Shown here: positions 43,392 to 63,992 of the stretch, piece by piece
Layout: each line of letters opens with the position of its first letter
How positions within the stretch are numbered: the stretch's first letter is position 1
Assembly: GCA_963810095.1 (NCBI GenBank)
Contig: CAWEMM010000012.1
Location: forward strand, 512,001-576,000
Direction of reading: 5' to 3'
From: an uncultured Chloroflexia bacterium
GTDB taxonomy: Bacteria > Chloroflexota > Anaerolineae > CG2-30-64-16
DNA length: 64,000 nucleotides
The notes under the pieces: model-generated
The model's database searches: none
Told to the model about the DNA's origin: nothing
Seen by the model: the letters and a program-made list of their open reading frames with translations, nothing else
Made by a program: the position numbers and the translations under genes

Positions 43392-44285
43392 GTGCGGATG
43401 CACGTACGCGAGATCGAGGCGAAGACCTTGCTCTCTGCCTGCGCGAAGCCCGATCCATGGTTCGGGATCAAGTACACGATGAACCTGTATCGGGGCTGCG
43501 GGCATCACTGCATCTACTGCGACAGCCGCAGCGAGTGCTACCAGATCGCGGACTTCGACGGCGAGGTGCTGGTCAAAGCGAACGCGCTGGAGTTGCTGAA
43601 GAAGGAACTGCCGCGAAAGCGCGTGAAAGGCTACGTCAGCACTGGATCGATGAACGATCCGTACCAGCCGCTCGAACGGGTGCGCGGCTTGACGCGCGGC
43701 GCGCTCGAGATCGTCGCGGCCCATCGCTTTCCCGTCCATATTATCACCAAGGGCGACCTCGTCGTGCGCGATGTCGACCTGTTGTGTGCGATCCGCGACG
43801 CAACGGGGCCACGCGGCGCGGTCGTCAGTTTTACCATTACGACGCCCGACGACGACCTCTCGCGAAGACTGGAGCCGGGCGCGCCGGCGTCGTCGGCCCG
43901 GTTTGCCGCCTTGGCAGCACTTGCCGCGCGCGGCCTTTGGGCCGGCGTCACCCTGATGCCCGTGCTGCCCTTGATCGAGGATGACGAGGAGAGCGTGCGG
44001 CGGCTCGTGGAGCGTGCCGCAGGGTGTGGAGCGAAGTATGTGATTCCGGCCTGGGGGCTGACGTTGCGGAACCGACAGCGCACGTACTATTACCAGCAAC
44101 TGGACCGGCTGTTTCCAGGGCTACGGGAAAAGTATGAGCGTGCATACCGGGAGCGGTACTCGGCCGGCTCGCCGAACGCGCGCCGGCTCGAAAGAGTTTT
44201 CGACGGGCTGGCCTCGGGCCATCGTCTCGAACGATGCGTACCTCCGTACCAACCCCCTGAGGCGGAGCAACTCGCCCTGTTCTGA
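43392..44285 (+). CDS. Radical SAM protein (spore photoproduct lyase-like)
   Basis: MNLYRGCGHHCIYCD (CxxxCxxC), GSMNDPYQPLE, LEPGAP. Confidence 0.88.
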   Translation: MRMHVREIEAKTLLSACAKPDPWFGIKYTMNLYRGCGHHCIYCDSRSECYQIADFDGEVLVKANALELLKKELPRKRVKGYVSTGSMNDPYQPLERVRGLTRGALEIVAAHRFPVHIITKGDLVVRDVDLLCAIRDATGPRGAVVSFTITTPDDDLSRRLEPGAPASSARFAALAALAARGLWAGVTLMPVLPLIEDDEESVRRLVERAAGCGAKYVIPAWGLTLRNRQRTYYYQQLDRLFPGLREKYERAYRERYSAGSPNARRLERVFDGLASGHRLERCVPPYQPPEAEQLALF

Positions 44286-45296
44286 CCCGCCAGCGCGGGC
44301 CTGAAGTCCGGTCGGGTTCAGGTCGCCCGAGCGTGCCGATCGCGCTCGCCGGCTCCGCCGCGCCGACCGCTGGTATTCGTCGAAGGCCACGGCCCCCAGG
44401 AGAATCAGCCCGCGCACGACGAACTGTGCGTAGATGCCCCAGCCGGCAAGCTGCATCCCATTGCCCAAGATCGCCAGCACGAACACGCCGGCCACGAGCG
44501 CAGGCACGTTGCCCTCGCCGCCCATGAAGCTAACCCCGCCCAGGATCGCGGCCGTCAGTGCCGTGAACTCCGTCCCCGGCCCGAAGGACGAGTGCGTCGT
44601 GTTTGCCTTGGAGACCATCACCATCGTTGCCACGGCGGTGAGGAAACCGCAGACCGTGTACGTGGAAATCTTGAGGAACTTGGTGTTCATCCCCGCAAGT
44701 CGCGACGCTTCTTCGTTGCCGCCCAGTCCGACGATCCGCAGCCCATAGACCGTTTGGTAGTATACAAGGCTCGCAACGACAACCACCGCGAGTGCCAGGA
44801 TTACGTCCAGCGGGACGCCAAGCACCTGGCCCTTCGTGATCACGAGAAACTGCTCAGGGTAGTTGCGGTACGTCTTGGATTGGCTGAGCATGTACGAGAT
44901 GCCCTGGAAGATGACAGCAGTGCCAAGCGTCGCAATAAGTGGGAAGATCTTCAGCCGAGTCACGATCAGGCCATTGACCAAGCCCAGAATCGTGCCCAGA
45001 ATCAGCCCGAGCAGGACCGCAGCCCACGGCGGCACGCCGTATACCGTCATCGCCATCGCGGTGACCACGCCGACAAGCGACATTTGGTAGCCGACCGACA
45101 AGTCCACGCCGCCGCCGATCATGACGAACGACAGCGCAACCGCCACGATTACGAAGTAGGTATTCTGCGTGACGATGTTGGTGAGGTTCCGGACCGTCAG
45201 GAAGTAGGGGCTGGAGAACGAAAACAGGGCCACCAGCGCGAACAGCACGAGCATGATGGCGTATTTTTGGAGGCCGCTGATTCTCGAATTCGACAT
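44121..45296 (-). CDS. Sugar (CUT2/RbsC-type) ABC permease; true 3' end probably near 44320
   Basis: GGVDLSVG, PLIATLG, GGNEEASRLAG, EFTALTAAILGGVSFMGGEG. Confidence 0.88.
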   Translation of the reverse strand: MSNSRISGLQKYAIMLVLFALVALFSFSSPYFLTVRNLTNIVTQNTYFVIVAVALSFVMIGGGVDLSVGYQMSLVGVVTAMAMTVYGVPPWAAVLLGLILGTILGLVNGLIVTRLKIFPLIATLGTAVIFQGISYMLSQSKTYRNYPEQFLVITKGQVLGVPLDVILALAVVVVASLVYYQTVYGLRIVGLGGNEEASRLAGMNTKFLKISTYTVCGFLTAVATMVMVSKANTTHSSFGPGTEFTALTAAILGGVSFMGGEGNVPALVAGVFVLAILGNGMQLAGWGIYAQFVVRGLILLGAVAFDEYQRSARRSRRARSARSGDLNPTGLQARAGGSEQGELLRLRGLVRRYASFETMARGQPVENSFEPARVRRAGRVPLPVCTLILFP

Positions 45297-45309
45297 ATTT
45301 CGGCGCGCC

Positions 45310-46100
45310 TTATCCAAATGACCGGTACTGGACTTCGGGTGCAGGGGTCCCGTTCTGGTCCTTGCCCTTGACGATCATCGTCACGACGTCGTCAAGGGTT
45401 ACCTTGCTCACGTCCATCACGTCCTGACGCTGGCCGCCTTTGAGGACGAAGACCCGATCGGCGATAGCGAGAACATCCGGGATCCGCTGCGTGATGAGCA
45501 GGACCGACAAACCGCGGTTTCGCAGGTCACGGATGAGCCCAAGCAGCTTGTTGGCCTCAGTAACTCCTAGGGCTGCAGTGGGCTCATCCATGATGAGGAT
45601 CTTGGAATCAAAGGCAATCGCGCGGGCGCATGCCACCATCTGTCGCTGACCGCCCGACATTCGCGCTGACGCTCATCCTGGGCGACTTAATGTCCACGCG
45701 GCAGTTCTTTGATCAGTTCCTCGGCCCGCCTGTACAGAGTCCGCTTGTCCAGAAACATCCCCAGCGGCCCGCGTGTACACTCTCGACCGATGAAGATGTT
45801 CCGGGCGACGTCAAGGTTGTTGAAGAGGGCGAGATCCTGGTAGATCATCGCGATCCCCATCCGGGCCGCATCCTGTGGGTTACGGATGTGCGCGACTTGC
45901 CCATCGATCAGAATGCTCCCCTCGTCGGGCAGGTGCGCGCCGGAGAGAACCTTCATCAGGGTCGACTTGCCGGCGCCGTTGTCGCCGACAAGCCCCATGA
46001 TTTCCCCCCGGCGCAGCTCCAGGTTCACATCCGCCAGCGCGCGCACGCCGCCGAAGCTTTTGCAGATGCTGCGCATCTCAACGACGTAGTCTGATTGCAT
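45310..46100 (-). CDS. Sugar ABC ATP-binding protein (single domain), frameshift near 45690
   Basis: [41 protein letters not shown]. Confidence 0.9.
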
Positions 46101-46148
46101 TGTGCCATCCAAGTGCGGCGCTCGATCCAAGTAGCTGTGGGCGCCCGC

Positions 46149-62682: not shown

Positions 62683-62701
62683 TTACGCTAAAACCTGCCA
62701 C

Positions 62702-62773
62702 TTGACACGGGATGCACAATGTGATAATGTGCCTCCGTATCACATAACAAAACTTTGTCTCATATAATAAGAC
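62702..62773 (+). promoter_or_regulatory. Promoter of the nitroreductase operon with tandem boxes
   Basis: TTGACA (62702-62707), 17 nt, TGa-TAATGT (62725-62730); boxes GTATCACATAACAAAAC (62737-62753) and GTCTCATATAATAAGAC (62757-62773). Confidence 0.82.
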
Positions 62774-62835
62774 AAGCGACCTCGACGGGCATGCCACGCT
62801 CGCCCCGTTCTGCGATCTCAACAAGGAGGTAAGGG

Positions 62836-63519
62836 ATGCCAGAAACGTATTCGCTTGAGGACGCCGCCATGAAGGTCATTCTGGACCGCCGCAGCGTCCG
62901 CGAGTTCACCTCAGAGCCTGTATCAGACGAGGACCTGGACAAGATCCTGGAGGCCGGGCGACAGGCTCCGTCGGGCGAGAACGCGCAGCCGTGGCGGTTC
63001 ATCGTGGTGAAGAGCGAAGCGACCCGCAAGGCCCTGGCGGCGTTGTCGGGCGGCGGCAGCGGCCGGCGGTTCACGGCCGAGTTCGTTACCAAGCAAATGC
63101 AGGAACGTTTCGCCAACCTGCAGGACGAGGCGAAGAAGCGTGCCGCCTTCGAAAAGCTCACTTCGGGCCAAGTCTCCGCCTTTGTCGGCGACGCCCCGGT
63201 CATCCTGGTCGTCGTGGGCAAGAAGGACGTCTGGGACCTGCCCTACGACACCTCTGCCGCCATCGAAAACATGCTGTTGATGATCACCGCGCTCGGCTTG
63301 GGCGCCTGCTGGGTGATCGCCCCCTGTATCGACATCCGCGACGAATTGCAGATCAAGGAGATGCTCGCGATCCCGGAGGGCTTCAAGGCCATTAGCCTGA
63401 TTTCGGTGGGCCATCCCTCTCGCCCGCATCGTCCGCGGCCCCGCCTCCCCATCACACAGATCGTTTACGCCGAAGCCTGGGGCGCGCCCTACTACAAACC
63501 GGCGGAGGAAAAAGCATGA
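62836..63519 (+). CDS. Nitroreductase-family flavoprotein
   Basis: AAGGAGG RBS; RRSVREF, APSGENAQPWRFIVV, DTSAAIENMLL..LGLGACW. Confidence 0.93.
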   Translation: MPETYSLEDAAMKVILDRRSVREFTSEPVSDEDLDKILEAGRQAPSGENAQPWRFIVVKSEATRKALAALSGGGSGRRFTAEFVTKQMQERFANLQDEAKKRAAFEKLTSGQVSAFVGDAPVILVVVGKKDVWDLPYDTSAAIENMLLMITALGLGACWVIAPCIDIRDELQIKEMLAIPEGFKAISLISVGHPSRPHRPRPRLPITQIVYAEAWGAPYYKPAEEKA

Positions 63520-63992
63520 CCGGCCCAAGCATTTCCCTCGCTTATGCCAACAGCCTCATTTTCGAGCTGGAGAAAGCCTTCTACGACGAGCGCGGCAAGG
63601 GCGCGCGCTTCCGCACGACGACCGTCGGCCGGCAGTATTTCGAGGAGCGCTGCCAGCACTGCCTCCAGTCGGACGACGTCGCCGAGATCACGCACGACAT
63701 CGAAGCGGTGCTCGCCGAGGACGGGCTGGTCGAAGCGGTCGCTCTCAAGCAGGAAGAGCGGCTGCTGCGGCTCCATGTCGCGGGTTGCGTGCACCGGCCG
63801 GTCGAGGAACACATGCTGGCGTGCGGCGTCCAGCCGTTCACGTGCATGCCGGGCAATCTCCTCGTGCTCGCACTTGAGGCGAAGCTCAACCGGCCGGTCG
63901 AACTTGCCGAGATCAAGCTGGACGAAGGCGGCCCTGCAGGGGGCTGCGATCTCCTGCTTGTCCTGTTCGAGAAGCGCCCGGTCTTGGGGTAG
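63516..63992 (+). CDS. Hypothetical Cys-containing protein (possibly V4R-like)
   Basis: Coupled to the nitroreductase by an ATGA overlap; GCVH, TCMP and a C-terminal C spaced like V4R ligands (weak). Confidence 0.65.
   Translation: MTGPSISLAYANSLIFELEKAFYDERGKGARFRTTTVGRQYFEERCQHCLQSDDVAEITHDIEAVLAEDGLVEAVALKQEERLLRLHVAGCVHRPVEEHMLACGVQPFTCMPGNLLVLALEAKLNRPVELAEIKLDEGGPAGGCDLLLVLFEKRPVLG

Follow-up and report, generated by a model that had tools for sequence, protein, structure and literature searches.

A proposed composite catabolic island in a probable Anaerolineae genome with a candidate operon for galloyl-ester import and gallate degradation

The subject of this study is a cluster of catabolic genes in the right-hand part of a 64-kb stretch of a probable Anaerolineae genome from freshwater sediment; that whole stretch (G000:C12:512001-576000) is hereafter termed the window. 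We somewhat favor the view that this region is a composite catabolic island of three modules and not a single regulon. Module A, which extends on the minus strand from 55848 to 48526, combines a sugar-type ATP-binding cassette (ABC) importer, ABC2, with a BD-FAE esterase, GalB, GalC, a VOC-family dioxygenase and a CHMI-family tautomerase; module B consists of a secreted subtype-B tannase under a promoter of its own; and module C comprises a second importer (ABC1), an Ldh2-cupin-X-IolN-MoaD-like gene series in which X denotes a TIM-barrel protein, and a nitroreductase-158-aa protein-CoA transferase series that runs onward beyond the window. Judged from its sequence, the module A operon probably imports galloyl esters and degrades gallate with two replacement enzymes, and we hold with moderate confidence that this variation on the known gallate pathway is new. 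The original prediction had called the arrangement undescribed, which is too strong as worded; what is added here is the CHMI variant of the cassette, the importer and esterase genes fused to it, the secreted tannase as a neighbor, and a genome-unique operator that sets the IolN/nitroreductase system apart.

Families were assigned by Pfam, NCBIfam and Protein Data Bank (PDB) sequence searches of the window proteins, the source genome comprising 6.13 Mb in 16 contigs and being 88.5% complete. The gene inventory of the original prediction was recovered in these searches, each named family at its position, including two complete sugar-type ABC importers (Peripla_BP_4, BPD_transp_2 and ABC_tran, each found twice in Pfam); two finer labels, U32 and ThiS, are taken up below. 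For comparison, 160 related loci were assembled, 80 anchored on GalB with one genome taken per species and 80 anchored on IolN from a metagenome search (73-84% identity), together with a class sample of 201 genomes made up of the source genome and 200 others. The closest GalB loci, at 70-78% identity, are labeled Anaerolineae, Anaerolineales or Chloroflexia, and freshwater-sediment metagenomes are the source of the contigs that resemble the region. On the labels of these loci, the probable Chloroflexota origin put forward in the original prediction is reasonable.

The eight genes of module A are co-directional, separated by gaps of at most 80 nt and placed behind one promoter, with the end of galB overlapping the start of galC by 10 nt:

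48526..48903, minus strand: CHMI-family tautomerase (PF02962, 2e-25), starting MPQ with Pro after Met
48942..49898, minus strand: type I (VOC) Fe(II) extradiol dioxygenase (TIGR03211, 343 bits; 9wgj, 1e-114; start ATG at 49898)
49900..50541, minus strand: GalC-like RraA-family aldolase (PF03737, 6e-33; 3noj, 2e-36; NF006731, 173.1 bits)
50532..51248, minus strand: GalB, PIG-L-family 4-oxalomesaconate hydratase (5cgz, 7e-60, residues 6-235 aligned to 4-236)
51324..52245, minus strand: BD-FAE esterase, cytoplasmic (PF20434, 2e-62; frame change at about 51440-51457)
52295..53299, minus strand: ABC2 permease (Pfam, 4e-34)
53307..54828, minus strand: ABC2 double ATPase (Pfam ABC_tran; frame change near 54241-54251)
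54903..55848, minus strand: ABC2 substrate-binding protein (Pfam Peripla_BP_4; frame change near 55279-55295)
56028..56056, minus strand: promoter in front of the eight-gene ABC2-esterase-gal operon (TTGACA-17-TAACGT with a TG preceding the -10 box)

The esterase has no signal sequence, in agreement with the cytoplasmic enzyme that had been proposed. GalB matches 5cgz, the GalB structure, over its full length, and the GalC-like protein matches the aldolase structure 3noj; the GalB assignment stands, as do those of the extradiol dioxygenase (343 bits against a TIGR03211 cut-off of 320.2) and the CHMI tautomerase. In the dioxygenase the metal ligands His/His/Glu are kept and the motifs IDH, LHHV and NRFE align with 1mpy, but a second-sphere His is replaced by Tyr, the segment KSYDVA aligning with KAHDVAF of XylE, which holds the second-sphere catalytic His. 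Tyr also occupies this position in the closest solved relative, 9wgj, and His in 3lm4, 3hpv and 1mpy. More than 7,700 metagenomic proteins match this VOC family at 1e-30 or better, and among the matches listed every source name is catechol 2,3-dioxygenase. A genome-wide search for a LigB-type GalA gave one weak LigB-family match (60.8 bits, contig C9), the 88.5%-complete genome contains no PF04303 match that would denote a PrpF-type GalD and no DUF6282 protein, and Pfam finds no dehydrogenase gene within the gal operon. With no PrpF, no DUF6282 and a single weak LigB match, VOC and CHMI are therefore the sole candidates found for ring cleavage and isomerization. The description of the system as built from non-canonical parts is apt for these two enzymes and not for GalB and GalC, which are canonical.

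Comparison across the GalB loci establishes that the cassette exists in two variants, a CHMI type and a DUF6282 type. GalC is present in 72 of the 80 loci, and a VOC dioxygenase with 54-79% identity to that of the window lies beside GalB in 57, which are labeled Chloroflexota, Thermus/Meiothermus, Solirubrobacterales, Gaiellaceae, Armatimonadota, Gemmatimonadaceae, Bryobacterales and others. CHMI occurs in 13 loci, all labeled Anaerolineae, Anaerolineales, Anaerolineaceae or Chloroflexia and always in the order galB-galC-voc-chmi; DUF6282 occurs in 53, and the two are never found together (0/80). The DUF6282 assignment was confirmed by Pfam in Thermus igniterrae, Solirubrobacter soli and Thermomicrobium, and in these non-Anaerolineae cassettes (L045, L056 and L019, respectively) the DUF6282 protein directly precedes GalB; in the Thermus cassette an NAD-binding dehydrogenase also follows GalC. 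The esterase and ABC2 directly precede galB in two related loci (L007, L009). An abstract-level literature search, with subscription journals outside its reach, found no published account of a VOC-type gallate dioxygenase, a CHMI cassette or a cupin/X/IolN/AFOR cluster.

In the pathway that we propose for module A, a small galloyl ester would be imported through ABC2 and de-esterified in the cytoplasm by the BD-FAE esterase. The Fe(II) VOC dioxygenase, standing in the place of GalA, is predicted from its family and gene context to open gallate directly to 4-oxalomesaconate, in which case neither a dehydrogenase nor a lactone hydrolase would be needed. CHMI, in the place of GalD, would perform the 1,3-allylic isomerization and so act as 4-oxalomesaconate isomerase, and, by homology, GalB would hydrate the isomerized product and GalC would cleave CHA (4-carboxy-4-hydroxy-2-oxoadipate) into pyruvate and oxaloacetate. 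A trihydroxy substrate that yields a dicarboxylate directly, i.e. gallate, appears to suit the CHMI-type cassette best, and we propose CHMI as the natural stand-in for the GalD isomerization.

Module B lies 9 kb from the gal operon and would act ahead of this pathway, its tannase setting free extracellular gallate and small galloyl esters:

60269..60309, plus strand: tannase promoter (TTGACA-17-TATGCT), with half-site ATGAGAC at 60303-60309
60650..62512, plus strand: secreted subtype-B tannase (NF041556), with a C-terminal extension of ~95 residues

The protein scores 323.8 bits on NF041556 (cut-off 300) over positions 11-462 of the 463 in the profile, its best solved relatives are tannases (6yq4, 7e-53), and a signal-like N-terminus and the nucleophile motif GTSGGG (GXSXG) are present, so that the assignment as a secreted subtype-B tannase is upheld. 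The motifs KTPPAFD, NESNL, RHGMIDRDTS and HSGNYD align with 6yq4, and we assume galloyl-binding and catalytic roles for their residues. In the class sample, tannase_B is found in seven genomes, three of them above the cut-off, and GalB in eight; five genomes of the same family as the source contain neither. Around the tannase homologues of five other class genomes, no island gene was found with the exception of one Ldh2-like gene: in L086 (G098:C200, 434-3330) the tannase homologue (49% identity) is followed directly by an Ldh2-family gene with 34% identity to the window Ldh2. As side observations, the tannase leader (60310-60649, ~340 nt) is unusually long and has no Rfam match, and the gal-operon leader (56000-56060) and the tannase leader (60330-60345) have in common a 10-mer, CCCGATSACG (CCCGATCACG and CCCGATGACG), which could be the site of a second regulator or a chance match.

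Module C, with its regulator and operators, brackets the other two modules:

44121..45317, minus strand: ABC1 permease, sugar-type BPD_transp_2 (Pfam, 8e-36; AraH/GguB-like below cut-offs)
45310..46130, minus strand: ABC1 ATPase in two frames (ABC_tran on both pieces; break near 45690-45702; orthologue in L094 intact)
46149..47369, minus strand: ABC1 substrate-binding lipoprotein, Peripla_BP_4 (Pfam, 5e-17; N-terminus ending LLAGC)
47478..47494, no strand: operator O1 GTCTTATGATATGATAC, one mismatch, just downstream of the ABC1 -10 box (TTGACA at 47528, minus strand)
47695..48468, plus strand: IclR-family regulator, candidate binder of the palindrome (HTH_IclR, 3.3e-18; IclR_C, 1e-45)
56122..56346, minus strand: small MoaD/ThiS-like open reading frame (ORF), garbled in its middle part and ending SGG
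56490..57451, minus strand: IolN-type creatininase-family hydrolase (NF041098, 441 bits; frame change at 56648)
57581..58496, minus strand: protein X, TIM-barrel protein without a Pfam family (frame change at about 58155-58173)
58540..58902, minus strand: Cupin_2 protein (1.5e-14)
59092..60087, minus strand: Ldh_2-family dehydrogenase (1.6e-106), lacking the C-terminus beyond the point that corresponds to position 330 of the 376-residue orthologue
60112..60128, no strand: operator O2 GTTTTATCTAATGAGAC, one mismatch, downstream of the promoter that serves the Ldh2 operon (minus-strand TTGACA at 60183)
62702..62773, plus strand: nitroreductase-operon promoter (TTGACA-17-TAATGT) with perfect operator O3 GTCTCATATAATAAGAC at 62757-62773
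62836..63519, plus strand: nitroreductase-family flavoprotein (9e-33)
63516..63992, plus strand: conserved 158-aa protein without an assigned family; the operon runs on beyond the window

A search of the 64-kb window with the pattern TTGACA-N16-18-TAnnnT returned seven sites, and the five of these that lie in the island each carry a TG before the -10 box and face an operon start. Of the shared motif on which the original prediction had based one operator common to every operon, a part (GTGATA) is this extended -10 element. The operator itself is a 17-bp palindrome with the consensus GTCTYAT-N3-ATRAGAC, for which we scored as sites all copies with at most one mismatch; it stands at three of the five island promoters, those of ABC1, the Ldh2 operon and the nitroreductase operon. 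The three sites in the window (47478, 60112 and 62757), where 0.01 would be expected by chance, are also the only ones in the whole 6.13-Mb genome, and a reversed control gave none. A further copy with three mismatches lies beside O2 at 60132-60148, and a generic inverted-repeat search did not pick up the operator. Within 2.1 Mb of related loci the palindrome was found four times (once in the control), three times upstream of the nitroreductase gene (L134, L158 and L156) and once just before an IclR gene that precedes the cupin gene (L137). This distribution in the window and its relatives assigns the operator to the IolN/nitroreductase system and not to the gallate genes. The single IclR had been correctly recognized, both of its domains being found, and it probably represses module C through the palindrome placed just after each -10 box; on the model of the PcaR/PcaU/PobR subfamily it scores 185.6 bits, under the cut-off of 284.75.

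Module C is a separate conserved system that is widespread in the class and includes a tungsten-type AOR. The IolN family is found in 86 of the 201 class genomes, and among the 80 IolN loci 60 carry the cupin, 65 and 70 the respective pieces of X, 16 the nitroreductase, 14 the 158-aa protein, 14-15 the CoA transferase, 13 IclR, 14 Ldh2 and seven the esterase. In L137, for example, the locus begins with nitroreductase, an unassigned gene, CoA transferase A/B and ferredoxin, followed by IclR, Ldh2-ADH and a second IclR, and continues through cupin, X, IolN, AFOR, a small MoaD-like protein and a branched-chain ABC importer to a Peripla_BP_4 importer. The window IolN scores 441 bits on NF041098 against a cut-off of 245, and an intact orthologue reaches 515 bits over its full length. 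Class matches to IolN fall into two score groups, ~490-550 and ~300-335 bits; as both groups are represented in several genomes, there may be two paralogous systems.

Protein X is the member that the original prediction had labeled U32-like. Neither the window copy nor the intact orthologue (L137:8954-9925) matches any Pfam or NCBIfam family; its own family has 803 representatives at E of 0.001 or below, and a PDB profile search gave nothing significant (best match 0.022). An AlphaFold model of the L137 protein, built from a 40-sequence alignment, is a TIM barrel with a mean predicted local distance difference test (pLDDT) score of 93.6, and its fold matches are effectively tied among CutC (Z 16) and, both at Z 14.4, the U32 peptidase Mk0906 (5d88) and class II aldolases; Atlas neighbors carry PF01136 in 55% and 23% of their members. 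As modeled, X resembles metal-dependent aldolase barrels only generically, and in the postulated Ldh2/cupin/U32-like/IolN/ThiS operon the Ldh2, cupin and IolN assignments survive, the U32 label has behind it only the Atlas neighbors and a generic TIM-barrel fold, and the ThiS gene is a garbled MoaD/ThiS-like ORF ending SGG. The nitroreductase operon is present as described.

By analogy with IolN of Thermotoga maritima, whose inositol pathway uses this hydrolase, the IolN-type enzyme might hydrolytically open a cyclic beta-diketone (a cyclitol or a reduced polyphenol); next would come cleavage, then oxidation of an aldehyde by the AOR, and transfer of CoA. IolG, IolM and IolO are absent from the Pfam and NCBIfam matches of the window and of L137, and the ADH scores 63.9 bits (1e-17) on the IolM model, whose cut-off is 450. 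IolN was also considered as a substitute for dihydrophloroglucinol cyclohydrolase, and this was set aside: in the published account (PMC10470551) that enzyme belongs to the 'cyclase' family and not to the creatininase family, which leaves a chemical analogy only.

A number of observations weigh against the gallate reading of module A and against its ties to the rest of the island. The TIGR03211 model matched by the dioxygenase is named for catechol 2,3-dioxygenase, and GalC, at 173.1 bits, falls 6 bits short of the NF006731 cut-off of 179. No known gallate transporter family was seen, both importers being of the sugar type; of the claim to a complete system, the four-enzyme gallate-type lower pathway is retained, whereas completeness, with no gallate transporter evident, is too strong. 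In the GalB comparison, 38 of the 57 VOC loci carry DUF6282 and 29 of the 57 also match a Thermus dehydrogenase query; such cassettes fit a protocatechuate-type route, and the substrate of the VOC clade need not be gallate. Tannase and GalB occur together in the source genome only (0/200 others in the class), and none of the 160 related loci holds the tannase (0/80 GalB and 0/80 IolN loci); the co-occurrence in related genomes whose lack the original prediction had named as refuting it was therefore not found. Finally, the gal-operon promoter has no palindrome within three mismatches, only GTCTTAG, and the tannase promoter has a single half-site and no full operator; the operator distribution thus gives no support to co-regulation across the three modules.

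The first rival account holds that the region is one ~20-kb IclR regulon, in which all operons, those for IolN and nitroreductase included, serve a route from tannin to central metabolism, as originally proposed. The modules are adjacent, and their strong promoters look alike, making up five of the window's seven TTGACA-N16-18-TAnnnT sites; the half-site GTCTYAT occurs seven times in the window, five times just after four island -10 boxes, that of the tannase included; and orthologues of the esterase are tied either to the gal cassette or to the cupin-X-IolN genes, as described below. This account is nevertheless unlikely, because the palindrome is limited to the ABC1, Ldh2-cupin-X-IolN and nitroreductase promoters, with none at the gal promoter and half of one at the tannase promoter, because GalB, GalC, VOC, CHMI and the tannase are found in none of the 80 IolN loci, and because prevalence in the class differs widely (86 genomes for IolN, eight for GalB and seven for the tannase). 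Neither the single regulon nor the assignment of the IolN and nitroreductase modules to the gallate route is supported.

A second rival, which we judge equally doubtful, is that module A acts on another catecholic acid such as protocatechuate or catechol, with the tannase a neighbor by chance or for detoxification and no tannin-to-pyruvate system in place. The above-cut-off TIGR03211 score would accord with this, as would the membership of the dioxygenase clade in DUF6282/dehydrogenase cassettes of Thermus, Solirubrobacter and Thermomicrobium and the lack of tannase synteny in any other genome or locus examined. The CHMI form of the cassette, however, is without DUF6282 in all 13 loci, and with no DUF6282 in the genome and no dehydrogenase in the operon an aldehyde product would therefore lack an onward enzyme. 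Furthermore, GalB is a close, full-length relative of a characterized hydratase, an esterase is encoded in the operon, and the galloyl-site motifs of the adjacent tannase align with those of solved tannases. We retain gallate as the probable substrate of module A; its coupling to the tannase, resting on adjacency and shared ester chemistry in the source genome only, is plausible.

The esterase also bears on how the modules may be connected. Its orthologues (59-67% identity) occur with ABC2 by galB in L007 and L009, and with ABC1 in the cupin-X-IolN loci L094, L114, L118 and L170, directly upstream in L094. One tentative possibility, to which we assign a low probability, is that the esterase links two branches, splitting an ester whose gallate half would pass through VOC(Tyr), CHMI, GalB and GalC in an O2-dependent route and whose cyclitol half would take an O2-independent one not described before. 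The ester would be a depside or a galloylquinate-type tannin fragment, imported and split in the cytoplasm; the cyclitol half would be handled by dehydrogenases, the IolN-type beta-diketone hydrolase, a new TIM-barrel lyase, the tungsten-type AOR and the CoA transferase under the IclR operator. If this were true, both halves of hydrolyzable tannins would be consumed at the oxic-anoxic interface.

Interpretation of these genes is complicated by frame breaks, which were located by aligning unbroken orthologues, taken from related loci, with the window. They split or truncate 11 or more genes in the island and in its continuation: X, IolN, the ABC2 substrate-binding protein, the ABC2 ATPase, the esterase, the ABC1 ATPase and the MoaD-like gene align in two frames within the window, Ldh2 loses its C-terminus, and AFOR (two breaks), CoA transferase B and ADH are affected beyond it. 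About one break per 2.5 kb is seen over 44121-64000 and the adjoining stretch L004 (G000:C12:574001-594000), across unrelated genes, and none of the sites is a long homopolymer run. Logan contigs from four sediment runs (X1-X4) were mapped onto 51000-60900, and near-identical contigs proved one base shorter at three break sites, namely at 51448 in the esterase (X4; the shifted frame of this gene restores a GAGH C-terminus), at 55294/55295 in the ABC2 substrate-binding protein (X1, X3 and X4) and at 58173 in protein X (X1 and X2); the breaks are therefore probably assembly indel errors, and we assume that the organism itself carries unbroken copies of these genes. Telling against this are the shallow depths of the supporting contigs (2.3 to 6.8, with two of the three sites on depth below 5), their possible origin from related strains and the restriction of read support to three breaks; at the break sites of the ABC2 ATPase, IolN, Ldh2 and the MoaD-like gene, no indel appears among the contig matches listed. 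That the island is instead a decaying remnant of real breaks and mostly pseudogenes, as the 11 or more split genes and the lack of long homopolymers might suggest, is very improbable, given that the pieces retain 62-83% amino-acid identity to orthologues with every high-scoring segment pair stop-free, that breaks are equally frequent in unrelated flanking genes (a Peripla_BP_6 protein, AFOR and LarA each in two pieces, and ADH truncated), and that independent contigs are one base shorter at three of the sites. In practical terms, severe fragmentation is to be expected in any gene calls made on this assembly.

The extent of the island differs from the 44121..63992 first assigned to it. Genes at 35-44 kb (GTP cyclohydrolase, DinB, SDR, O-methyltransferase, TetR and radical SAM) are unrelated, and the left edge is therefore placed near 44.1 kb, as before; the right end does not hold, since CoA transferase A/B, ferredoxin, a branched-chain-type ABC importer, the tungsten-type AOR (AFOR), LarA, ADH and GlcD-like genes continue past the end of the window. 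Just upstream of the island, at 38636-39280, there are a class I O-methyltransferase (Methyltransf_3, catechol O-methyltransferase type) and a TetR-regulated gene pair. An Rfam search of 44000-64000 gave no match at or below 0.1.

Among the plant compounds that enter soils and sediments, tannins and gallate are major ones, and the 'enzyme latch' idea treated in PMC10470551 builds on how slowly they are turned over. Should gallate indeed be cleaved by the VOC/CHMI cassette, the name catechol 2,3-dioxygenase would be wrong for thousands of metagenomic proteins that now carry it, and gallate catabolism would be far wider than GalA/DesB surveys suggest, with Chloroflexota, Deinococcota and Actinomycetota included. 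The His-to-Tyr change in the active site poses a clean mechanistic question. Module C, for its part, is a large uncharacterized catabolic system with a defined operator and a candidate regulator, and is tractable by electrophoretic mobility shift assay (EMSA) and ligand screening. The link to tannin is plausible and specific to the source genome.

Among known systems, the closest in logic is the gallate pathway of Pseudomonas putida KT2440, which consists of GalA, GalD, GalB and GalC; the operon described here follows the same four steps and has the same last two enzymes (GalB and a GalC-like RraA-type aldolase). It differs in having a type I VOC dioxygenase where P. putida has a LigB-type GalA, and a CHMI-family tautomerase where P. 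putida has a PrpF-type GalD. In addition, unlike the P. putida gal cluster, the cassette shares one operon with a sugar-type ABC importer and an esterase, and the adjoining regulator is an IclR whose operator is absent from the gal operon. The cassettes of Thermus, Thermomicrobium and Solirubrobacterales have the same VOC clade beside GalB and GalC, but carry DUF6282 in the slot that CHMI occupies in the Chloroflexota form, and are not joined by esterase, importer and tannase as is the cassette here. With solved subtype-B tannases (6yq4, 3wa6 and 4j0c; 470-495 residues) the window protein shares the GXSXG and galloyl-site motifs, yet it is longer than these chains, has a signal sequence and an extra C-terminal domain of ~95 residues, and stands only 24 bits above the cut-off of its family, NF041556. 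For module C, the nearest counterpart is the inositol pathway of T. maritima, the only control genome matched, whose IolN is of the same hydrolase family; here, the partners of IolN are instead a cupin, the TIM-barrel protein X, AFOR, a MoaD-like protein and a nitroreductase/CoA-transferase operon.

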